Positions 5,884-52,561 of a stretch of 64,000 nt of DNA are shown piece by piece (position 1 is the first letter of the stretch; every line of letters starts with the position of its first letter). Below the pieces are notes generated by a model. That model did no database searches, had not been told where the DNA came from, and was given only the letters and a program-made list of their open reading frames with translations. The translations under genes and the position numbers were made by a program. Origin of the DNA: a virus; the IMG/VR virus record IMGVR_UViG_3300043251_000023, positions 1 to 64,000 of that record; one strand, written 5' to 3'.

Positions 5884-6096
5884 ATGACCGCAGCAGACGT
5901 GCGGAGAATGTTGCAACGGGCTTGTGAAAGAGCCGGGAGCCAACGCGCATGGGCGCGTGAGCATTCGGTTTCCGTTGTTTACGTCAATGACGTTTTAAGC
6001 GGAAACCGCGAGCCTGGCCCTGCGATTTTACAAGCGTTTGGGCTGGAAGCGGAGCGGCGCACCACATATAGGAAAAAAGGGCAACCAAATGGCTGA
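5884..6096 (+). CDS. Cro/Xre-like helix-turn-helix protein
   Basis: GSQRAWAREHSVSVVYVNDVLSGNREPGPAILQAFGL HTH pattern. Confidence 0.8.
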   Translation: MTAADVRRMLQRACERAGSQRAWAREHSVSVVYVNDVLSGNREPGPAILQAFGLEAERRTTYRKKGQPNG

Positions 6097-6718
6097 GCGC
6101 ACCATCGAGATTCCTGAAATCAAACTAGACCGGATCACCGTCAAGGTCGTTGGCACGTCGCCGCTGCTCACGAATCGGTTCGGCGAAAACGCCATTACGT
6201 CCATCGAAAACAAACAACAGAAAAAGGCCAAGGGCGTGAAGGAGGCGCGCGACCCCCACGCGGAGTTTGTCGAAAAACTGCATGTCATAAAAGCAGGTAA
6301 AAGCGATCTTGATGGCACGTTCGGCTATCCGTCCATCGGCATCAAAAAGTGTCTTGTCGTTGCCGGTGGGCGGTTCGCCGACGAAAAGATGACGCATCTG
6401 CGCGGCGCGATCAACATTCTCGGCAGCCTCATCGAAATCAAATCGCCACCCCCGACCATGCGGACGGACACCGTGCGCCTGCAGGGCGGCGTGACCAGCA
6501 TCGCCTATCGGCCGTCGTTCTGGCCGTGGGAAATGGAAATTCCGGTTGTGTATAACGCAGGCATCATCGGCCCCGCGCAAATCCTCAACCTTTTCCAGAT
6601 TGCCGGTTTTGCGGTAGGATTCGGCGCATGGCGCCCCGAACTTAACGGCGTGTTCGGCCAGTTCGTTTTGAAGGATTCCGCCGAAGTCCAGACGAAAGGA
6701 CGGGCCAAGGCGGGATAA
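6089..6718 (+). CDS. stand-alone RAMP/Cas7-like RNA-binding protein (Vipr-like guide-binding effector)
   Basis: N-terminal strand ITVKVVGTSPLL, YPSIGIKKCL, YRPSF.PWEMEIPV and a C-terminal glycine-rich loop AGFAVGFGAWRPELNGVFGQF; no other cas genes; directly followed by the pentamer array. Confidence 0.8.
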   Translation: MAERTIEIPEIKLDRITVKVVGTSPLLTNRFGENAITSIENKQQKKAKGVKEARDPHAEFVEKLHVIKAGKSDLDGTFGYPSIGIKKCLVVAGGRFADEKMTHLRGAINILGSLIEIKSPPPTMRTDTVRLQGGVTSIAYRPSFWPWEMEIPVVYNAGIIGPAQILNLFQIAGFAVGFGAWRPELNGVFGQFVLKDSAEVQTKGRAKAG

Positions 6719-7251
6719 AACACAAGAGCAGACTCGATTTGCTATGCGTTGAACAGACCTTAAGACAGTCAACGAGCATCTGTAGCGAAAAGAAAACAGG
6801 CGCATAGATCGGAGCGGACTCGACAACACTACACAACAAGAGAAAAGTTTAATCCATTTGCCAATAGAGGAGATTAGCAAACTAAGGACGCGACGAGAAT
6901 CGAGAACACGCGAAATGCTTTGTCCATTTGCTATAAGAAAAGCTGAGAGCAAATTTGCGTAGCCTAGCCTTGACACGCAAAGCATCGACGTGAGAACCGC
7001 TGAAATGAAAAGTTTAATTCCTTTGCCATCTGAATGGAGCCGACACGAGGCGAGGCGCGGAGAAAACCCGTGACGACAAATGAAAAGTTTAAACAATTTG
7101 GGCATTTGATAAGAAAAGCTTAGCTGTGACGACAATGGACAACCGAACAACCGAGAAGAAATGTTTTTGTTTGGCCCTTTATCAAAAGAGCCGATTTGCG
7201 TTGCAGAGACGCGCGTAGAAATGTCGTCACGACAATCGAGATGAAATGTCT
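6715..7251 (+). repeat. array of seven tracts of 5-nt units (NG[A/C] or AC[A/C] triplet + variable NN), mostly separated by conserved NGAAA-WGYTT + ~10-nt ...TTTG linkers
   Basis: by my count 71 of 91 core pentamers have G at position 2, 15 more start AC, and none has G at position 3; phase is unbroken over 6781-7090; linkers AATCCATTTG 6851, TGTCCATTTG 6921, AATTCCTTTG 7016, AAACAATTTG 7091, degenerate at 7167. Confidence 0.92.
6715..7251 (+). ncRNA. putative multi-guide precursor RNA (gapped-code guides) for the adjacent RAMP protein
   Basis: the variable dinucleotides of six tracts decode to conserved transposase or mobile-element protein motifs; transcription and processing are not shown. 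Confidence 0.75.
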
Positions 7252-8307
7252 ATATCGATCAAAGAGTATTTTGCGCTGGCTGGAACGTCGTTCACCAACG
7301 ACGATGCGCGGGTTATCGGCCCGGTTCTCCAAGAGATTGCCACCGATGGTAGCGTGACCGCAGAGGCGGTCGTGCAGGCCGCGCATTCCGCAAATAGCCC
7401 ACTGCGCAGCTATTTCGAGTGGGACGACAAAAAGGCTGCTCACCAATATCGAGTCGGCCAAGCCAACTACATGATAAACGCTGTCCGCGTGCGCTTTGTC
7501 AGCGCCGGCAAGGAATATGCGACGCGCGCTTATCGGGTTGTCACCAAGCAGTACGAAGGCGACGCGGCCGGATGGGATGAAGACGAGCGATCCGTCGAAA
7601 TCGTGCGGTCGCCGAACGATGAAATCTTGGCCGCGCTGCGGGAGGTTGATGCGTGGCGCGTCAAATATGCTCACCTTTCCACCTTCCAGAATGCCAAATC
7701 GTTTTTGGTGCCGATCTTCAACCAGATTGCCGAGTTCCGCGCGGATTTGGCTGGCAAAGAGGCTATGCCCATAGACGGGGCGCTCGGCGAGCTTACCCAA
7801 TGGGTTCAAAAATATGGCGACGCCGATGCCGTGTCCGCCTCTGCTCTCCTTGGCGAGCACATTCACTACATGGTGGAGGCGATCAACGAGTCCTGGGAAA
7901 ACTTTGGACGCTTCAAGCATGATCCGGCATTGCGTCGGTCTCTGGTGGAGGAAGAAAACGAGGAATTGCGCGAGCGCGTCCGGATTTTGGAGGAGATGTT
8001 AAACGGGAAGGAAAGTCTGCCGCCGGAATTGAGGTTGACCGCAAGCGAGGAGCGCGTCGTGTCAGCCCTGCTGTCGCGAGACGTTATGACCAAAGAGGCC
8101 ATTTCGATGGCGCTCTATTCCGACCGCCCCGATGTTGCGCCAGAATTAAAAATTGTCGACGTATTCGTGTGCAAAATCAGAGCGAAGATTGAATCGCACG
8201 GGTTGAAAATCGAAACGCATTGGGGACGCGGCTATTCGATGCCGGCGGAGAGTAAGCAAGAGCTGCGCGGCATGATCGCCGCGCGCAAAGAGGCCGCAGC
8301 GGCATGA
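7246..8307 (+). CDS. RAMP-associated partner domain fused to an OmpR/PhoB (CtrA-like) winged-helix DNA-binding domain
   Basis: N-terminal VTAEAVVQAA...SPLRSYFEWDDKKAAHQYR motif; C-terminal LTASE...LYSDRPDVAPELKIVDVFVCKIRAKI...IETHWGRGY. Confidence 0.75.
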   Translation: MSISIKEYFALAGTSFTNDDARVIGPVLQEIATDGSVTAEAVVQAAHSANSPLRSYFEWDDKKAAHQYRVGQANYMINAVRVRFVSAGKEYATRAYRVVTKQYEGDAAGWDEDERSVEIVRSPNDEILAALREVDAWRVKYAHLSTFQNAKSFLVPIFNQIAEFRADLAGKEAMPIDGALGELTQWVQKYGDADAVSASALLGEHIHYMVEAINESWENFGRFKHDPALRRSLVEEENEELRERVRILEEMLNGKESLPPELRLTASEERVVSALLSRDVMTKEAISMALYSDRPDVAPELKIVDVFVCKIRAKIESHGLKIETHWGRGYSMPAESKQELRGMIAARKEAAAA

Positions 8308-9038
8308 AACCTTTGCGTCGATTTGCAGATCATGGCGACGCCGGCGCGCCTTACTCACTGGCCCCGTCGCATATCGCCGCGCGGCTTGGCACAAGCCTTT
8401 ATCGCGAAGGGCGCCTAGGCTTCCCCAAGGGCAAAACGCTCCTAACCAGCGGCCATAACAATCGCAAGATCGGCGCCGTCATCCAAAAGGGTAGATGGAA
8501 GGGCTACCCGGTCTTTACCTTGACCCTGGAGGAACGCGCCACCTGTCCGCGCTCATGCGCGCATTGGCTCGATTGCTACGGTAACAAGATGAACTGGCCT
8601 ACTCGATGGATGAATGACGCGGACCTGATACCGACAATCGGTAGGAACCTATCGGATTTATCGAGAAACGTCCCGAATTTCGTTATCCGGCTTCATGTCC
8701 TTGGCGACTTTTATTCAGTCGCCTACGTCGAGCAATGGGCGCGATGGCTCGATGAATTTTCCGGCTTGCACGTCTACGGCTACACGGCTTGGCAGCCGGA
8801 TACTGCGATCGGTCGCACCGTCGCCGCACTCGCGGAAGCCCGCTGGGATCGTTTTGCGGTTCGCACGTCGAACGGCGTCGTGGCCGAACGCACGACTGCC
8901 ACGATCTACGAGGCCAACGCCAGCGGCCAAATAAATGGCGGCACGGTCTGTCCGGTACAGACAGGAAAAACCGAATGTTGCGCGACGTGTGCTTTATGCT
9001 GGCAGACGCAGAAGCGCATCATCTTCCTGGCGCACTAG
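8304..9038 (+). CDS. GP88-like Cys-rich phage protein
   Basis: TCPRSCAHWLDCY, IRLHVLGDFYS, C-terminal CPVQ...CCATCALCW. Confidence 0.6.
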   Translation: MKPLRRFADHGDAGAPYSLAPSHIAARLGTSLYREGRLGFPKGKTLLTSGHNNRKIGAVIQKGRWKGYPVFTLTLEERATCPRSCAHWLDCYGNKMNWPTRWMNDADLIPTIGRNLSDLSRNVPNFVIRLHVLGDFYSVAYVEQWARWLDEFSGLHVYGYTAWQPDTAIGRTVAALAEARWDRFAVRTSNGVVAERTTATIYEANASGQINGGTVCPVQTGKTECCATCALCWQTQKRIIFLAH

Positions 9039-14629: not shown

Positions 14630-15090
14630 GCACAGTAAGGACGCTAGCATGGAAAAGAAACCCCACAAAGTTATGACCCGCGAAGAATACGCGGCAATGC
14701 CAATCCTCGGCTGGCATGAAGTCTGCCGCGACGTGGATGGATTTGGGGGTATAGGCGTTCGTTTCTTAGAACAAAAACGGTCGCGCGGCGGCTCCAAGGT
14801 TTCGATTATCGGCAAAGGATGGTCGACTCGCAGGCGTTCAAAATATTTGCAGCCCGTAAAATCACGGGGTTAACGCTTATGCGCTGCAAGATTGACGGTT
14901 GGCTTAACAATGACAACTGCACCGTCGCGTGCGAGTGCCACCTTGACCCACGCAACAATGGTCGGCAGGCAGGCCCCCTGATGGTCCGACACATCATCGA
15001 CGGCCACGAGGTTCTGTTGCCGGCAGACGCGCAATTCGACCGCGATGATCTTGGCGGCACGTATTGAAAACAGGCACAGTCAGGACGTTA

Positions 15091-15885
15091 ATGCCCAGAA
15101 TCGAGACCATAGGCGCCGCGACACTCTATCTCGGAGACTGCGGCGAGATATTGCCGACGCTCGACGGTATAGACATCGCCGTCACTAGCCCGCCCTACAA
15201 TCTCGGCAGCGCGCCTTGGGCTCACCTGGGGCACTGGAAGCCCGGCAATGCGGCCGGCGCAGGGGGACGAGCAAAATGGAAATCGGGCGCCAGCAGCGAC
15301 GGCGTCGCCTACGGCGAGCATGACGACACAATCCCATGGGCGGAATACGTCGCATGGCAGCAATCCATCGTGTCTCTGATCTGGGATGCGCTTGCCGATA
15401 ACGGCGCGCTGTTTTTCAACCACAAGCCTCGCGTGATAGGCACGAAACTGTGGACCCCTTTAGAGCTGATCCTGCCGCCGGCGGAGTTGCGCCAGATCAT
15501 AGTGTGGTCGCGGCCGGGAGGAATGAACTACAGCCCAGCCTCGTTCGTACCCACGCATGAATGGATTTTATTGCTGGCAAAGCCTGCATTCCGCCTCAAG
15601 TCGAAGGGCGTTTCAGGCCTCGGCGACGTGTGGCCCATGCGCCCGGAAAAGAACGAGCATCCGGCGCCGTTCCCGATCGATCTTCCGGCGCGCGTGCTCG
15701 AAGCAACCGCGGGTAAGACCGTCCTTGATCCGTTCATGGGTTCTGGCACGACGGGCGTTGCCTGCGCCCGCACCGGCCGAAGGTTTATCGGCATCGAGAA
15801 AGACCGCCGCTGGTTTGATCTTGCCTGCGAGCGAATTGATCTGGCGTCACGTCAGCCCGACATGATTGCTGAAAACAGGCACTAA
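15091..15885 (+). CDS. beta-class N4-cytosine/N6-adenine DNA methyltransferase
   Basis: LYLGDC, VTSPPYN, HPAPFP, VLDPFMGSGTTGVAC, FIGIE. Confidence 0.92.
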   Translation: MPRIETIGAATLYLGDCGEILPTLDGIDIAVTSPPYNLGSAPWAHLGHWKPGNAAGAGGRAKWKSGASSDGVAYGEHDDTIPWAEYVAWQQSIVSLIWDALADNGALFFNHKPRVIGTKLWTPLELILPPAELRQIIVWSRPGGMNYSPASFVPTHEWILLLAKPAFRLKSKGVSGLGDVWPMRPEKNEHPAPFPIDLPARVLEATAGKTVLDPFMGSGTTGVACARTGRRFIGIEKDRRWFDLACERIDLASRQPDMIAENRH

Positions 15886-18536: not shown

Positions 18537-19583
18537 TCCCTGAACAGCAGGAAGAACCATGAGAACCGATGAGGCAATGAAGGTCGAGACCATTGCGCAG
18601 CTTCACGATACGGCCTGCCATGAGGTCGCGCGCCTCACTGAGCTCCGCGAATCAGACGCGAAGGTGATCGCGGCGTTGAGGGCAACAATTCTGAACATCG
18701 GCGATCTTGCGGACAAGGCCACTCATGGCGGCGGTACTACTTTCTTGTATGGCGTCACACTGCGGGATATTATTTTCCGATGCGCTACGGCGTTATCGCC
18801 GACAGGTGAGCAGACAGCAGGGAGAAGCAATGATGTTTAAGGACGTGCTCTTTATCGACAATCCTCGTTCGTGGCCGCCGTGTGAGCCAGCGTCCGATCC
18901 GGACTGGATCAAGCACGTTCATTGTGACAGCGCTCGATGGCATACGCCGTCATGGGGCTTGTATCATAGCTGGCGCGGTGAGCGCGCGATTGAGCGATGT
19001 TCGCAGGCTTGTTGTATCGTCAACAAAATAGCCGCTGAACAACTTGCTGAAATCGGCATAAAGGCCACCTTTGTCACACACAAAGACGGCAAGATACTTC
19101 CGCGTTCATAAGCGATTAGCCGGGAGAACCCATGAGCACAGCAGAACAGATTGTTAATCGAGCGCTCCAAAAAGTCGGTCGCGATCCTCGCATCGATCCC
19201 AAGCCAGGTGATATCGTGCGCTCGGATTATCCGTCGATTGGCGAGCGCCATGTAATCCATGCGAACGAATGTGGCGTTTCCTATTGGCGCATTCGGCCTA
19301 ACGGTAGGCGATATGATGGGTACTGCCTCCCCGGCATTTGGCAAAAATGGTGCCGAGGCCATAGGGCCGCTATCATCCAAACAGGCGGTTAATGGCCAAT
19401 AAGCACGGAGAAAATCATGGGCTACAAAATGTCGCTCTATTCTTGCACCTGCCGGATGAACTCGGTCAATTCGGCGTCGCTCGATCCGCCCGAGCCGATC
19501 CTTGATCCGTGGTGCCCGATCCACGGCAAAGACCCTGATGTGGAATACGAAAAACGACGCGACGACGCGCTGTGGGATCGGAA

Positions 19584-27684: not shown

Positions 27685-28260
27685 ATGAGGCTCCGCGACA
27701 CGAACAAGCACCAAGACCTCGGCGAACTAAAGACGTTCGTCAATCTCGCGGTCGAACTCGACGTCCGGCGCTATCTCGAAATCGGAAGCCGCAACGGCGA
27801 CTCGTTCTTCGCGGTGATGGCGAACCTCCGGCCGGGCGCGTTCGGCATGTCGATTGACCTGCCGGAGAACGCGGAGACGATGGGGCGCATGGCTGCGACG
27901 CTTATCGAACTGCGCAACATGGGCCAGCGGACGGCCTTGCTCTATGAATCATCGCGGGAAACGTCCGCGTTGTGGGCGGCGAAGGCGAACGCGCCGTTCG
28001 ATCTTGTCCTGATCGACGGCGACCATACCTACGGCGGCGTAATCTCGGACTGGACCGATTATCAGGCGTTCGGGAAGGTCGTGGCCGTGCACGACATCGA
28101 CGCGCCGGCGGGATGGAAGTCGAGCGGCTTGCCGAACGAGGTCGGGCGGTTCTGGCGAGAACTCAAATCCGGCCTTCACACGCCGCCGCGCGCCGCGCAC
28201 GAGGCCCGCGAGTTCATCACGCCCGGCTCGAAGATGGGCTATGGGGTTGTTTTCCGATGA
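27685..28260 (+). CDS. class I SAM-dependent methyltransferase (Methyltransf_24-like)
   Basis: YLEIGSRNGDS, FDLVLIDGDHTY, VAVHD. Confidence 0.85.
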   Translation: MRLRDTNKHQDLGELKTFVNLAVELDVRRYLEIGSRNGDSFFAVMANLRPGAFGMSIDLPENAETMGRMAATLIELRNMGQRTALLYESSRETSALWAAKANAPFDLVLIDGDHTYGGVISDWTDYQAFGKVVAVHDIDAPAGWKSSGLPNEVGRFWRELKSGLHTPPRAAHEAREFITPGSKMGYGVVFR

Positions 28261-28727
28261 GCCGCAAATTCACCGTGGAGCGGATCGACCTCGGCGAAGC
28301 CAATGTTTTCGTGGTTGCCTATCATCGGCATCACAAGCCCGTAGTCGGGCATCTTTTCTCGATTGCGGCAGCAACCGCAGATTCGCTCGATGGTGGCGCC
28401 AGGAAGATCGTTGGCGTAGCGATTATCGGCCGCCCAGTAAGCAGACACCGCGACGACGGTGTGACGGCCGAAGTAACCCGGCTCTGCACTGACGGCACCA
28501 AGGACGCCTGCTCGTTCCTCTACGGGGCCAGCGCCAAGGCTTGCTTCGCCCTCGGCTTCAAGAAGGTCGGAACCTACATCCTCGCCAGCGAGCCGGGCAC
28601 GTCGTTGATGGCGGCGGGCTGGCGCATGATCGCGGAAACGCCGGGGCGAAGCTGGTCAGTACCGTCGCGCCCGCGCATCGATAAGCATCCGCTGCAAAAA
28701 CGGCTGCTGTTCGAAGCGCAAGTCTGA
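28257..28727 (+). CDS. XF1762-like (Mom/GNAT-related) phage protein
   Basis: HRHHKP, GVAIIGRPVSR, EVTRLCTDGT.ACSFLY, E.GTSL.AAGW. Confidence 0.75.
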   Translation: MSRKFTVERIDLGEANVFVVAYHRHHKPVVGHLFSIAAATADSLDGGARKIVGVAIIGRPVSRHRDDGVTAEVTRLCTDGTKDACSFLYGASAKACFALGFKKVGTYILASEPGTSLMAAGWRMIAETPGRSWSVPSRPRIDKHPLQKRLLFEAQV

Positions 28728-46649: not shown

Positions 46650-46919
46650 TGTCTGCTCCGCTTGCAATCTCTGCAGGAAACGCCAGATCGCCTTATAGCT
46701 TCCGATTCCTGTCAGTGCGATCTGGTGGGCGTTGAGTCCGCTTCGGTGAAGTTCGATGATCCGATCGTACCAACCGGGCGCTTTCTTTCGATAGCGACGG
46801 GATACCTCCCGCGTTGTTCCGTAATCGTATTTGCACGATGTGCATCGGCGCTGATTGCGCCTGATCCGATAGACCTTGGAACACCCGCATCTCGGGCAGC
46901 ACTCATTCTCCAGACCCAT
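46641..46919 (-). CDS. IS1595-transposase-like zinc ribbon + HTH, without DDE domain
   Basis: CPRCG...C..C zinc ribbon; GLNAHQI...SYKAIWRFLQRL resembles the IS1595 N-terminal region. Confidence 0.6.
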   Translation of the reverse strand: MGLENECCPRCGCSKVYRIRRNQRRCTSCKYDYGTTREVSRRYRKKAPGWYDRIIELHRSGLNAHQIALTGIGSYKAIWRFLQRLQAEQTLR

Positions 46920-47857
46920 GTTCGCCTCTGATGTTCGGTCATCCCTGTGGCTGCGCTGAGAAGATCAAGAAGTTGGCGCATAGTAGCATCGACGTTTTGC
47001 CCGCGGCATTTGAACATAAACGTTAATTCACTGCGTCCTCGATCTACATCTAAACAGGCATCAAGCATCAATAGAGCGGCGTTCCCCATCGACTTCTGAA
47101 AATCGCGCCTCCGCATCATTGATGTGTATTGGCGTTCGGTAAGATCACCGCGTTTCTGATAGTGCAGACCACCGCGCGGTTCCGACCAATCAATGCTGAC
47201 GTTTGGCTGGATCGCCGCCGCCTCCATATCCCACTGCCAAGACCGGCCGGCGCGGAGTTGAAGCGCGGTGATCTTTTTTTCTGCATAAAGCTGCATGAGA
47301 ATGTCGCGTTCGGATGGCGCGACAAGCTTACCGCCATCTTCGGATTGATAATGCTCTACATTGAATTGCTGCCGCTCTGCCACATCAGCCATTGGGAAAG
47401 GCTGGTCTGCAAAGTCAGGTTTGTTGTCCCTCGGACGGTTTGCTAGATATTGCGCAACACTCTCAGCCAACGCCGACTCCATCGGGGTCCGTGGCGACTG
47501 CGGCTTCTGTGTGCGCTTCTGCCTCTTCCACCATCCGGGATGATCGGCCATGAACTGCTCCCATTGGGCGGGGAGCATGTCGCCCTTCAGATTATTGCAC
47601 TCTCTGCAGCACGGCACTAGCTGCGTGCCGCCAGCGGACGCGGGTACATAATGATCGCGCGTCGCGGCGACGCGCGAATGCGACGAAGTCCTCTCCATGA
47701 GTCGTTTGCAATAAGTGCACGGAAGCCCCTCGCCTTTGCGACCGCGAAGATTGAGCGGCGGCTCAACAAAGAAAAATGTTTTTGCTCCGGTGTTGCGGTC
47801 GATCTCTTTATAAAGAGGCTTGCGACCGTGTCCGTGCCGCGACGTTCTAGTGCCCAT
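46712..47857 (-). CDS. HNH-domain protein with an unknown C-terminal domain
   Basis: CTYC...TRDHYVP.S.GG...CCRECNNLKGD; the last ~70 codons overlap the next ORF. Confidence 0.7.
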   Translation of the reverse strand: MGTRTSRHGHGRKPLYKEIDRNTGAKTFFFVEPPLNLRGRKGEGLPCTYCKRLMERTSSHSRVAATRDHYVPASAGGTQLVPCCRECNNLKGDMLPAQWEQFMADHPGWWKRQKRTQKPQSPRTPMESALAESVAQYLANRPRDNKPDFADQPFPMADVAERQQFNVEHYQSEDGGKLVAPSERDILMQLYAEKKITALQLRAGRSWQWDMEAAAIQPNVSIDWSEPRGGLHYQKRGDLTERQYTSMMRRRDFQKSMGNAALLMLDACLDVDRGRSELTFMFKCRGQNVDATMRQLLDLLSAATGMTEHQRRTWVWRMSAARDAGVPRSIGSGAISADAHRANTITEQRGRYPVAIERKRPVGTIGSSNFTEADSTPTRSH

Positions 47858-47953
47858 AGAGAATCCTCACCATCGCCAGTTCCAAGAAACTCGCCGCCAT
47901 CGATGGCCGGCGATAACAAAGCGCCGCAAGCAGGAAACAGCAGGCGGTAGCCA

Positions 47954-48985
47954 TCAGACACTCTCTGTCCAAGGACGATCTTCCGTGCCGAGCATCGGCT
48001 GATCAAAAGATATGCGAGGCCCGGCGCCATCGTATTTTAGGGGCAGCGTTTTGAAATGCTTGGTGATGTACCTCCCAACAGCATCGTTTAGGTCGCCGAC
48101 TGCAATATCGCCGGACAGCAGACCCACAATCATGTCCTGACAGACATCCGCGCGGATGTGCTCGGGCCAGCTATCAGGAACGGCACCATTGACCAGCAGC
48201 ACGAGATCGCGAGCACCGTCCGGCTTTTCGGGATCGTGCGCCATGAACGGATAAAATAATTGCTTGCTGCGAGCGATACCGCGTTCACGGTCGCGATAGT
48301 CTTGGCCCGCATTTTCGTGAGTCGATATGCGCCATTCGGCGCAGTCAATGCGGTCGCTAAATCGGTCAACGCGCTGCAACTCCCAACAATGTTGGCCACC
48401 GACCATCTTCACATATTCGGTTAGTCCCTCGATATTTTTGGTGACCGACGGATTGTCGTACAGGCGCCACAGAAAACTCCAAAGATGAGGCTTACTCGGC
48501 GGTCTCAGCGGCCCGCAGAGCTGCGAAAAGGCGGCGTTATTTACGAGCTTGAGACCATCGCTCATAGTCTCCGCTTCCGCCGCCATCATCAGTAATATAA
48601 AATTCCACATGCGATGAGCGCGCCCGCGGTTCATGGCGCCGCGATAAAGCAACAGCGGCGCAAATGTTTTTTCGATGCCCGGTCGGATGATCAGGTCCGA
48701 CAGATAGTTCATTCCGGGATTTGTTGCCGTTCCCGTAGAATACCAATGGTAAGGGCCCTTGCTCGAATTGAGCGCGCGAATCTGCTCCGGGCTCCGCTCG
48801 ATGCGCGGCTTGCTTTGACCCCCAGGGACTCCGAAGTGAAGTCGAAACCAGCCGCGCGTTCCGGTTTGGCGACCAATGCGATTGTGGATAGCCTCAACGC
48901 GCCCGCTTTCCGTTAGCGGGCCTGGCGCGATCCAGATGCCGCGAGCAATCTCGCGTTCCTGTGGCGTTATTTCTATGCTCGGCAT
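47954..48985 (-). CDS. hypothetical protein, sigma-region-2-like C-terminus
   Basis: 343 aa with GGGAG RBS; RADVCQDMIVGLL...ISFDQPM. Confidence 0.55.
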   Translation of the reverse strand: MPSIEITPQEREIARGIWIAPGPLTESGRVEAIHNRIGRQTGTRGWFRLHFGVPGGQSKPRIERSPEQIRALNSSKGPYHWYSTGTATNPGMNYLSDLIIRPGIEKTFAPLLLYRGAMNRGRAHRMWNFILLMMAAEAETMSDGLKLVNNAAFSQLCGPLRPPSKPHLWSFLWRLYDNPSVTKNIEGLTEYVKMVGGQHCWELQRVDRFSDRIDCAEWRISTHENAGQDYRDRERGIARSKQLFYPFMAHDPEKPDGARDLVLLVNGAVPDSWPEHIRADVCQDMIVGLLSGDIAVGDLNDAVGRYITKHFKTLPLKYDGAGPRISFDQPMLGTEDRPWTESV

Positions 48986-50762: not shown

Positions 50763-51110
50763 ATGCGAACTTTTGGCCGCGTGGTCAATCCAGACGGAAG
50801 CAAGTCGTGGGTGGAAGTCACCACCGATGCTAACGGTTTTGATGACGCCGTGTGGATCACCACGCTTTGCCAAAACTTCCTATTGAATCTCAACGAGTCT
50901 CCGTTCGACGCCAACTGGGGATTGCCAGCGCAGCAATCCGTCCTTCAGCAGGTCCAGCCTGACTATTACGTCGCGCAGATTCAGCGGCAGTTTGCGCAAT
51001 ACTTCGCGAGCCTGATCATCTCCAAGGTGCCCGATGTGACAACGCCGACCTATAACGTGGCAGTGACCACAAATCAGGGCTCAAAAATTATCGTCCAGGT
51101 GCCGACATGA
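50763..51110 (+). CDS. baseplate wedge/sheath initiator (gp25-like)
   Basis: LNLNESPF..WG.P; directly precedes baseplate J. Confidence 0.65.
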   Translation: MRTFGRVVNPDGSKSWVEVTTDANGFDDAVWITTLCQNFLLNLNESPFDANWGLPAQQSVLQQVQPDYYVAQIQRQFAQYFASLIISKVPDVTTPTYNVAVTTNQGSKIIVQVPT

Positions 51111-52561
51111 GCAACACGGACTTCGAGTTTCCGGTCGTCATCACGTCGGCTGGGGTCCAACCGACGCCGCCAGCGACAATTCTCGCCGAACTTATCGCAA
51201 ACGTCAGCGCAACGAATCCTGGATATACGGCAGTTTTGCCCGGATCATTGATTCGCGATGTGTCGACTACGGAGGTCGGCGGCATCGCCCTGATCGACGC
51301 GGCGCGGGTCGAGACGCTGAACTCGATCTCACCCTACGCGGCGAACGACTTCCTGCTCTTGGAGCTCGGGCAAATCTATATCGGGCCGGGGGCGGCTCCG
51401 GGCGTCCCCACGAACACGTCGGTCTCGGTCGTCTTCACCGCCATAGACCCAAATACCAGCGCGCCGCTCGGCGGCCAAGTGATCGCGGTCGGTTTCACGG
51501 TTTCCGACGGGACCTACCAGTACATCGTCCAGGACGGCGGGGTCACGTCCTCGAACGGTCAAAGCCTGCCGCTGTTCTGCATCGCGACGGTCTCCGGTTC
51601 GTGGGCGGTCCCGTCGGGAAGCGTGACGCAACTCGTCACGGCAGAACCGCCGGACGTCAACCTGACGTGCTCCAACCCGCAGCCGGGCTTCGCCGGTCTC
51701 GCCGCGGAGACGACGGAGCAATTCCGCGCGCGCGTCCTGATGGCGGGCCAAGCGATCGGGACCGGGACCGAATCGCTCCTCAAGACGCAGTTGTTCCAGG
51801 TTTCCGGCGTCCAGCAGCGGCTCGTCTCCGTGCGCCAGCAGGGGGCGGCTTGGGAGGTGATCGTCGGCGGCGGCGACCCGTATCAGGTTGCCGGGGCTAT
51901 CTACGCCTCGGGGGTAAACATCGCCGGGCTGGTCGGATCGACGCTTTCGGTGACGAACATCACCAATGCGAACCCCGGGGTGGTGACGACGAACCTCAAC
52001 CATGGCTTCGCGACCGGGCAAGTCATAACGATGGCCGGCATCGTCGGGATGACGCCGCTCAACGGGATACCGCTCACGATCACGGTTCTGACGGAGAAGA
52101 CCTTCAGCATCGGCGTCGACACGACGGGTTATCCGCTCTACGTCAGCGGCGGCGTGGTTTCCCCGAACCTGCGCAATGCCACGCCGAACATCCGGGACGC
52201 GCCGGACCTTTACACGGTCCCCTTCGTCATCCCGCCGCAGCAGACGGTGACGATCGCGGTGACCTGGAACACGACGCTGCCGAACTTCGTCTCGCAGGCG
52301 GCGGTCGCGCAACTCGCCGCCACGGCAATCGCGGCCTACATCAATGGGATCGAGGTAGGGGCCCCGATCAGCCTGCTCGAGCTTGGGACGACGTTCGCCG
52401 CCGCGGTGATTTCCGTCATCGACCCGTCGACGATCTCGGTCCTGACGTTCGTCGTTTCGATCAACGGGGTCTCGACGGCGCCGACCGGACAGTTAGTCCA
52501 GGGCGATCCGGAGAGCTATATGTTTTCAACGGTCGCCGGCATCGCCGTAACGCAGGTCTAG
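51107..52561 (+). CDS. baseplate J-like protein
   Basis: G...ETTEQFRARV, WEVIV.GGD...VA.AI; contains an FCCH-like insert (ITNANPGVVT...HGF.TG). Confidence 0.85.
   Translation: MSNTDFEFPVVITSAGVQPTPPATILAELIANVSATNPGYTAVLPGSLIRDVSTTEVGGIALIDAARVETLNSISPYAANDFLLLELGQIYIGPGAAPGVPTNTSVSVVFTAIDPNTSAPLGGQVIAVGFTVSDGTYQYIVQDGGVTSSNGQSLPLFCIATVSGSWAVPSGSVTQLVTAEPPDVNLTCSNPQPGFAGLAAETTEQFRARVLMAGQAIGTGTESLLKTQLFQVSGVQQRLVSVRQQGAAWEVIVGGGDPYQVAGAIYASGVNIAGLVGSTLSVTNITNANPGVVTTNLNHGFATGQVITMAGIVGMTPLNGIPLTITVLTEKTFSIGVDTTGYPLYVSGGVVSPNLRNATPNIRDAPDLYTVPFVIPPQQTVTIAVTWNTTLPNFVSQAAVAQLAATAIAAYINGIEVGAPISLLELGTTFAAAVISVIDPSTISVLTFVVSINGVSTAPTGQLVQGDPESYMFSTVAGIAVTQV

Follow-up and report, generated by a model that had tools for sequence, protein, structure and literature searches.

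Systems given the name VIPR, for Viral Interference Programmable Repeat, are CRISPR-like DNA silencers described in three 2026 preprints (10.64898/2026.04.26.720920 = PMC13142463; 10.64898/2026.04.26.720927; 10.64898/2026.10.15.759431). Their type II exemplars come from Escherichia phage SUSP1 and from a prophage of Pseudomonas fulva, and the systems are described as combining an ancestral RAMP protein of ~20 kD with guide RNAs made of 9–16 YNNGG units and a conserved tail; only the NN letters pair with the target, and one target base is skipped, at wobble positions. Here we examine a 64,000-nucleotide stretch of viral DNA (the window; positions 1 to 64,000 of IMG/VR virus record IMGVR_UViG_3300043251_000023), in which a 527-base gap at 6719–7245 separates two + strand genes at 6038–6718 and 7246–8307. 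We consider it very probable that this locus is a VIPR system whose guides target the most conserved motifs of two transposase families.

According to PMC13142463, inferred VIPR targets lie on both strands, double-stranded DNA (dsDNA) is bound and silencing can proceed from either strand; in 10.64898/2026.04.26.720927 the dsDNA is bound as an R-loop triplex. The preprints give transcriptional silencing as the outcome, and SUSP1 silences the recombinase of its satellite in this way. DNA-binding vap genes, winged-helix-like or helix-turn-helix-like, are described in types II, VI and VII (PMC13142463), and the preprint reports no self-targeting by its systems. Satellite-borne solo vrRNAs are described as redirecting Vipr to repetitive host sequences (10.64898/2026.10.15.759431).

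Like the SUSP1 and P. fulva systems, the locus described here is phage-borne and has one small RAMP protein beside a long non-coding gap, in which tandem pentamers of three scaffold and two free letters are followed by a tail motif conserved in sequence. It further shares with them a single skipped base on the wobble position, guides for both strands, no self-targeting, an adjoining candidate gene for a DNA-binding accessory protein, and guides that fall on a conserved motif of another element's mobility enzyme. It differs from type II VIPR in its scaffold, which is H-G-A rather than G-G-Y and fits the variant class written NNNNG in the preprint methods. In SUSP1, the first G is read by D177 of the G-loop; its counterpart here is alanine, at residue 197 of the longest ORF. 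Also relative to SUSP1, the tails are ~25–30 nt long with no predicted structure, as against ~40 nt with a pseudoknot. Two features set it apart from both exemplars: there is no tail where guide 1 meets guide 2, and the apparent targets belong to the IS1595 and IS1 transposase families. Neither the main text and supplement PDF of PMC13142463 nor the main text of 10.64898/2026.10.15.759431 gives an insertion-sequence transposase as a target. The predicted RRM-based RAMP fold with G-loop and thumb also recalls the class 1 CRISPR-Cas backbone (Cas7/Csm3/Cmr4), with which VIPR shares one protomer per fixed guide step and bases flipped out at each step (10.64898/2026.04.26.720927). Unlike CRISPR-Cas, the locus has no CRISPR repeats, Cas1/Cas2 or other cas genes in Pfam, PHROGs and PADLOC scans, it advances by 5 nt, of which 2 letters pair, rather than by 6 nt with 5 pairing, and its guide is interleaved with the scaffold rather than captured as a spacer.

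A Cas7-like protein encoded beside the gap

The + strand gene at 6038–6718, which we refer to as vipr, would encode a small stand-alone Cas7-like RAMP, judging from its PDB sequence match and predicted fold. Searched against PDB with phmmer as a single sequence, its product matched 36pp_D, 'SUSP1 Vipr protein' (E 8.7e-4), and a profile of 26 homologues matched the same chain with E 4.9e-6, aligning positions 128–186 with chain residues 131–185, a segment that includes the YRP motif and the G-loop G.G.WRP. Both motifs are invariant among the 26 homologues, whose mean column identity is 67% with numerous invariant columns. The best matches of an AlphaFold2 model of the protein (pLDDT 74.8, pTM 0.69) in a Foldseek search of PDB were all Cas7-type RAMPs (Csm3/Cmr4; E 4e-5 upward), and structural comparison of the model with 48,161 chains by VIA-align placed Cmr4/Csm3 first (Z 10.4, root-mean-square deviation 3.6–4.3, 156 aligned), ahead of Cas7 proteins of types VII, IV and I. 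Neither Pfam nor PADLOC has a family for the product, and a protein collection yielded 171 vipr homologues. The longest vipr open reading frame (ORF) spans 226 aa, relatives are ~181–219 aa long, and the family consensus opens with MAERT; the true start is probably the ATG at 6089. From sequence and modelled structure, we identify the product as a predicted Vipr with an RRM-based RAMP fold, G-loop and thumb.

A one-stranded array of five-base units

The gap holds a candidate vrRNA array (6719–7245, +) of ~100 pentamers of the form H-G-A-N-N, comprising seven guide tracts and five short tail motifs in three phase blocks (to ~6776; ~6777 to 7106; 7107 to the start of the following gene). We scanned both strands of the 73.5-kb genome for segments with GA at at least five of seven phased positions and found 14 on the + strand, in six clusters, and none on the − strand. 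Four of the six clusters lie at 6726–7042, and the remaining two are lone segments at 19556 and 32058. Letter usage was tabulated for 321 pentamers from four arrays, those of the window and of three related phages (L011, L012 and L032). G makes up 6% of position 1 and 70% of position 2, A accounts for 64% and G for 1% of position 3, and positions 4 and 5 are uniform; the information at positions 1–5 amounts to 0.25, 0.74, 0.65, 0.01 and 0.04 bit. A first-pass annotation, made from the letters of this DNA, had proposed a scaffold triplet and a free dinucleotide of one polarity throughout, and both the 321 pentamers and the restriction of the periodicity to the + strand bear this out.

Rfam has no family for the array, a promoter and terminator scan of it returned no sigma-70-like promoter and no intrinsic terminator, and it contains no CRISPR-type tandem or direct repeats. 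The same annotation had seen no Cas1/Cas2, integrase or reverse transcriptase in the window, and none was found by Pfam in 78 of the 105 called ORFs, nor in PHROGs scans.

Partial duplications are evident within the array: guides 4 and 6 begin with the same 15 bases, and a stretch of 28 bases is common to guides 5 and 7. Guides 1 and 2, which read opposite strands at neighbouring sites of one gene, abut at 6775–6782, where the phase slips by one base and the tail motif is missing, and this junction may correspond to the arrays that the preprint calls 'staggered'.

The five tail motifs, all on the + strand, are conserved in sequence in an alignment of 14 tails from four arrays. That after guide 2 (6840–6867) consists of GAAAAG, a T-rich stretch and CCATTTGCCA; the others follow guide 3 (6910–6937, overlapping inverted repeat I1, which pairs 6926–6937 with 6943–6954), guide 4 (7000–7032), guide 5 (7075–7108) and, in a variant form, guide 6 (7156–7188). 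A tail hairpin AAAUG/CAUUU, seen by eye, was dropped after RNAalifold paired none in the 14 tails. The GAAATG that opens each tail motif also surrounds the start codon of the 7246 gene (7238–7250), and the last guide overlaps the ribosome site of that gene. The array units may have arisen by duplication of the junction at this start codon.

Guide patterns match conserved motifs of transposase genes

We joined the free dinucleotides of each guide with one skipped base (N) between them and scanned the resulting gapped patterns over viral contigs. The letters of guide 1 could be trusted in such a scan because this guide is common to the window, L011 and L012, with its free letters kept and its scaffold letters differing. 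Guide 1 (11 pentamers, 6720–6774, +) returned 107 exact stretches, in which it reads in template sense across R-T-L-G-V-T-Y-K-(S/R)-A-(W/C) of IS1595-family transposases. Site statistics refer to the 80 of these 107 stretches that were fetched. All 80 are antisense and fall in one gene family and one frame, with the skipped base at codon position 3, and ORFs in the predicted frame have a median length of 308 aa, versus 27 and 62.5 aa in the other two frames. The motif at these sites is R-x-L-G-V-T-Y-K-T-A, and Pfam, run on two of the 80, identified Zn_ribbon_IS1595 and DDE_Tnp_IS1595. The full guide scores 21/22 in phase 0, compared with a shuffle maximum of 17 and a wrong-register maximum of 16.

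Guide 7 (13 pentamers, 7182–7246, +), whose last units overlap both the ribosome site and the ATG of the gene that follows, behaves similarly. Its pattern of 22 specified letters returned 62 exact stretches, read in template sense across.-S-M-R-R-F-T-R-L-T-N-A-F of IS1-family transposases. The longest ORF is in antisense frame 0, which puts the skip on position 3, in 47/62; for the remaining 15 it lies in another frame, in GC-rich DNA. The sites encode M-R-R-F-T-R-L-T-N-A-F, DDE_Tnp_IS1 was found by Pfam in the three of 62 on which it was run, and the full guide scores 25/26 in phase 0. Wherever sites were inspected by eye (guide 1, and guide 7 on 25 rows), each guide fell in one gene family. 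We estimate that 22 fixed letters would occur by chance about once per 1.8e13 positions, far beyond the size of the collection.

The remaining guides were scored on two sets of loci picked with guides 1 and 7 only, using 100 order-shuffles and four wrong registers as controls. Guide 2 (13 pentamers, 6781–6845, +) matches the same IS1595 genes in coding sense at (S/R)-K-K-G-I-S-A-L-..., which lies 33 nt upstream of where guide 1 matches, with 23/26 in phase 0 (shuffle maximum 19; wrong registers ≤18). Guide 6 (11 pentamers, 7107–7161, +) matches IS1-family genes in coding sense at +84 nt, over Y-N-F-(C/W)-R-I-H-.-T, with 19/22 in phase 0 (shuffle maximum 17; wrong registers ≤17), and in the L011 copy a nine-pentamer window starting one pentamer earlier reaches 18/18. 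Guide 4 (15 pentamers, 6931–7005, +) matches IS1595 genes imperfectly, in coding sense at +18 nt, over Y-K-.-A-.-.-L-L-H-.-I-R-E-A. Guide 3 (11 pentamers, 6861–6915, +) is tentatively placed in coding sense in IS1-family genes, at a position 96 nt upstream of that read by guide 7, and no target was found in these searches for guide 5 (11 pentamers, 7026–7080, +).

The guides of L011, L012 and L032 match the same two transposase families, and those of L012 and L032 match a third site in IS1 genes, with up to 18/18. Noise in such nine-unit tests was gauged from shuffled guides, of which 68/1,172 (586 windows × two locus sets) reach 15/18; we took scores of at least 17 as signal.

The first-pass annotation had assigned guides 2, 4 and 6 to the coding strand and guides 1, 5 and 7 to the template strand, and had placed the unread base at codon position 3 in all six. 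Its strand assignments hold for guides 1 and 7 (template) and 2 and 6 (coding), and marginally for guide 4 (coding), and its codon register holds for the same five guides, all in phase 0 (80/80 sites for guide 1, 47/62 for guide 7); neither was reproduced for guide 5, which was not decoded. Its further reading of the mixed strands, that the target would be dsDNA, agrees with the experiments of the VIPR preprints, in which wobble-skipping and dsDNA binding have been in print since April 2026.

Breadth of the guides and selection on their free letters

We next consider how widely each guide reads. The 80 guide 1 sites comprise 69 different strings; entropy amounts to 0.8–1.7 bit where bases are skipped, and to 0 at those read positions that are fully specified and thereby fixed by the search pattern itself. 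The proteins at these sites have a median identity of 37% (150 random pairs among 71 proteins of at least 200 aa). Guide 7 sites are likewise diverse, with 53/62 different strings and a protein identity of 56%. A single guide covers a diverged family, as the first-pass annotation had anticipated in its claim that synonymous drift offers no escape from guides of this kind, and in line with the argument of the preprints.

Guides shared between loci can be compared letter by letter. Between the window and L011, guide 6 shows four scaffold changes and no free-letter change, and guide 7 shows five scaffold changes and two free-letter changes, both confined to its last two units. That free letters are kept while the scaffold drifts indicates, at the sequence level, ongoing selection on the shared guides.

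The phage's own genome contains no guide matches above shuffles in any register. The register read through the GA/CA/GC letters gave an excess there (19 vs 7.2 ± 2.8) made up of matches of low complexity, rich in GA/CA/GC, which are probably runs of D/E/A/Q/H codons. Across four related phage genomes and 28 other loci (400,541 bases) there were no matches of at least 15/16, compared with 1.7 per shuffle, and the gapped pattern of guide 4 had a single match with three mismatches in the four relatives. With no self-match above shuffle level, the decoding in the first-pass annotation cannot rest on targets inside the window.

Relatives and the scaffold alphabet

The order vipr, array, winged-helix gene was found in four viral records and many metagenome contigs, and a search of viral contigs with the Vipr alignment returned the same four relatives only. 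In close relatives, the first and last guides of the array are kept and the middle differs. The scaffold changes with distance between the proteins: vipr homologues at 37–41% identity lie beside GGY-NN arrays, those at 63–70% beside (A/T)GY-NN arrays, and those of this clade beside H-G-A-NN arrays. In SUSP1, D177 hydrogen-bonds the first scaffold G (10.64898/2026.04.26.720927). The G-loop residue aligned to it is D or E in 10/10 loci with GG-core arrays and A, C or S in 8/8 loci with a non-G letter at the first scaffold position. No variation is seen among the homologues at the residues aligned to R138 and W178, the two that hold the second G.

Two relatives carry other elements among their pentamer tracts. 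In L030 (1131–1194, +), GGY-type tracts lie ~0.7 kb downstream of a vipr relative (58% identity, G-loop GDWRP), with a Hammerhead_II-like element at their flank that scores 34.7 bits (E 6e-4), slightly under the Rfam gathering score of 37, in agreement with the ribozyme-interspersed arrays published for other VIPR types. In L021 (2830–3090), three elements with a GGTTCAACTCCGG / GGTTCGACTCC core lie between (A/T)GY-NN tracts; by eye, we take them to resemble a tRNA T-arm. ARAGORN predicted no tRNA in L021, L026 or L002.

The downstream winged-helix gene and the genome setting

The gene that follows the array (7246–8307, +) is a candidate vipr-accessory (vap) gene, an assignment suggested by its position and domain content. 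Its product ends in an OmpR-type winged helix (Pfam Trans_reg_C, E 2.1e-8, residues 261–331), and its N-terminal domain is phrog_15946, of unknown function. A winged-helix gene directly follows vipr and the array in eight relatives (L011, L012, L013, L014, L023, L026, L027 and L032). A PDB sequence search with the product gave only weak matches to winged-helix proteins and Trp repressor (E ≥ 0.12), and among genome contigs its relatives amounted to a single distant match.

The source is a complete virus record of 73,543 bases with terminal repeats, of which the window is the first 64 kb. Sheath and baseplate genes mark it as a tailed phage, the sequencing runs that contain its DNA are labelled soil metagenomes, and the carrier is an uncultured 73.5-kb soil myovirus. 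Replication genes lie 5′ of the locus, namely those for a RuvC-like resolvase, an MT-A70 methylase, a primosomal protein and a primase-helicase (Pfam, PHROGs). Nothing in a phage DNA database matched 6000–8400. An ERF annealing protein and a YqaJ-like exonuclease are encoded at 68573–70346 (−) of the genome, outside the window (68.6–70.3 kb; L230:5573–7346), and this pair, the phage's own recombination genes, could shuffle array units.

Elsewhere in the window, two − strand genes at 46712–48985, one of them for an HNH endonuclease, interrupt a + strand tail module; their stretch, with a G+C content of 0.56 vs ~0.62, looks like an inserted mobile cassette. Two DNA methylases (MT-A70, N6_N4_Mtase) and a Mom-like DNA modification gene (1744–2415, 15064–15885 and 27972–28727) suggest heavy investment of the phage in DNA modification. 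A ubiquitin-E1 FCCH-like domain occurs in a baseplate J-like protein (51107–52561; Pfam E 2.9e-15).

Discussion

The features above can be assembled into a working model. The gap would encode seven vrRNAs that follow one another almost without spacing on the strand of the genes, probably in one transcript that would be cut into guides. As described for SUSP1, one Vipr protomer would occupy each five-base unit and hide its three scaffold letters, and the two free letters would be presented to pair with two target bases, every third target base being skipped. The resulting filament, again by analogy with SUSP1, would bind dsDNA on either strand and block transcription. Guides 1, 2 and, less surely, 4 would be directed at IS1595/ISXO2-like transposases, and guides 6, 7 and perhaps 3 at IS1-like transposases; with both senses used and the codon register respected, one guide could serve a whole diverged family. 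A likely purpose of such an arrangement would be for the phage to silence or immobilize, in the cell it infects, insertion sequences or elements that enzymes of this kind move. The inferred silencing of transposases would then parallel the silencing of the satellite recombinase by SUSP1.

Several observations weigh against this assignment or reduce the force of its evidence. The Vipr match (E 4.9e-6) spans only the 59 C-terminal residues, around the YRP thumb and the G-loop. With its H-G-A consensus, the scaffold departs from the strict GGY of type II; GGY is, however, not required for the VIPR class, because the preprint methods admit the variant repeats NNNGG, YNNNG and NNNNG. RNAalifold finds no consensus pairs in the 14 tails, and the SUSP1 tails form a pseudoknot. 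Transcription and processing of the array, and the ends of the guides, are predicted from sequence. On the side of the targets, the chance expectation of the scan is our own estimate rather than the outcome of a run control, and the scores of guides 1 and 7 on their own loci are partly circular, so that guides 2, 3, 4 and 6 provide the independent tests. Among these, the window version of guide 6 had no exact match in the 20-letter scan of the viral collection. Guide 4 is marginal, with 22/30 in phase 0 at the same place in six loci (shuffle maximum 21; wrong registers ≤20), and its exact 22-letter core likewise had no match in the viral collection. Guide 3 is weak, with 18/22 in phase 0 at 1/62 loci (shuffle maximum 17; wrong registers ≤17). 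Guide 5 scores at shuffle level, and its 18-letter scan gave four matches with no common gene or frame, which we judge to be about the chance level for 18 specified letters. The targeted transposases are known here from viral contigs. Finally, the correlation between the G-loop residue and the first scaffold letter spans about three lineages and few independent events, and is suggestive.

We weighed three other explanations of the locus. The array might be a true VIPR array whose transposase matches serve as landing pads, with filaments parked on host insertion sequences as a decoy or for takeover. Insertion sequences are multi-copy, both target families are widespread, and 10.64898/2026.10.15.759431 describes redirection to repeated host sites. 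The guides here, however, adjoin their own vipr gene in a phage rather than a satellite, and their codon register on both strands fits the silencing of a functional gene, whereas a decoy needs no wobble alignment; we regard this explanation as unlikely, though the most credible of the three. It is considerably less plausible still that the tracts are relics or orphans, descended from vrRNAs and now unexpressed or unused. The missing promoter-like and terminator-like sites, the lack of a target for guide 5 and the imperfect guides 3 and 4 would suit such decay, but the vipr ORF is unbroken and belongs to a well-conserved family (26 sequences, mean column identity 67%), free letters are kept while the scaffold drifts, and the vipr–array–vap order is retained in eight relatives.

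The third explanation dispenses with guides altogether and takes the gap for an element with protein-binding sites spaced by five bases, either a TRAP-like operator of the 7246 gene or a set of winged-helix sites or an origin. The sites of TRAP, the trp RNA-binding attenuation protein, are short purine-rich motifs recurring every ~five bases on one RNA strand. The GA periodicity recalls these triplets and shares with them the ~five-base repeat, the confinement to one strand and an overlap with a start codon, the last tract reaching that of the 7246 gene, and the region lies after replication genes. Unlike at TRAP-regulated sites, no TRAP-like protein is found here and the variable letters match foreign genes. 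A binding element fails to predict in-frame transposase motifs (107 and 62 exact matches) or a Cas7-like Vipr neighbour, and we give it hardly any credence. A TRAP-like operator, small ORFs after each 'GAAATG', iterons and winged-helix sites were each considered as candidates and rejected: indels of units break the frames, and the Vipr match and the targets explain the locus better.

How interleaved guides are written is a separate matter. The first-pass annotation had argued that such guides cannot come from simple spacer capture, and the passages of the preprints consulted here explain no mechanism for guide making. Guides 4 and 6 have the same first 15 bases, yet match different target families. 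Duplication, drift of free letters under selection and recombination at tails would fit as a source of new guides, and the data prove none of these. A broader picture, which we offer tentatively and rate at somewhat less than an even chance, is that VIPR in this clade of soil phages would be an anti-transposon weapon with guides selected on invariant motifs of IS1595 and IS1 transposases, for either strand; that its scaffold alphabet would be evolvable, one G-loop residue, acidic or else Ala/Cys/Ser, deciding whether the first letter has to be G; and that guides would form without acquisition machinery, by duplication of units, drift of free letters and shuffling of units between arrays by the phage's recombination genes.

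If the locus is a VIPR system as we propose, it lends computational and independent support to the published gapped code, from a distant branch whose scaffold differs, and the rule of reading two bases and skipping the wobble base, on either strand, would be general and not bound to GGY. The locus adds the H-G-A scaffold with its G-loop alanine, transposase genes as targets, and a junction of guides 1 and 2 that lacks a tail. The correlation of one loop residue with the scaffold's first letter, new here like the transposase targets, would offer an engineering handle for orthogonal pairs of Vipr and guide, and the writing of interleaved guides merits a dedicated comparative study. For the biology of these viruses, the finding suggests that phages may use RNA-guided silencing against insertion-sequence transposases.

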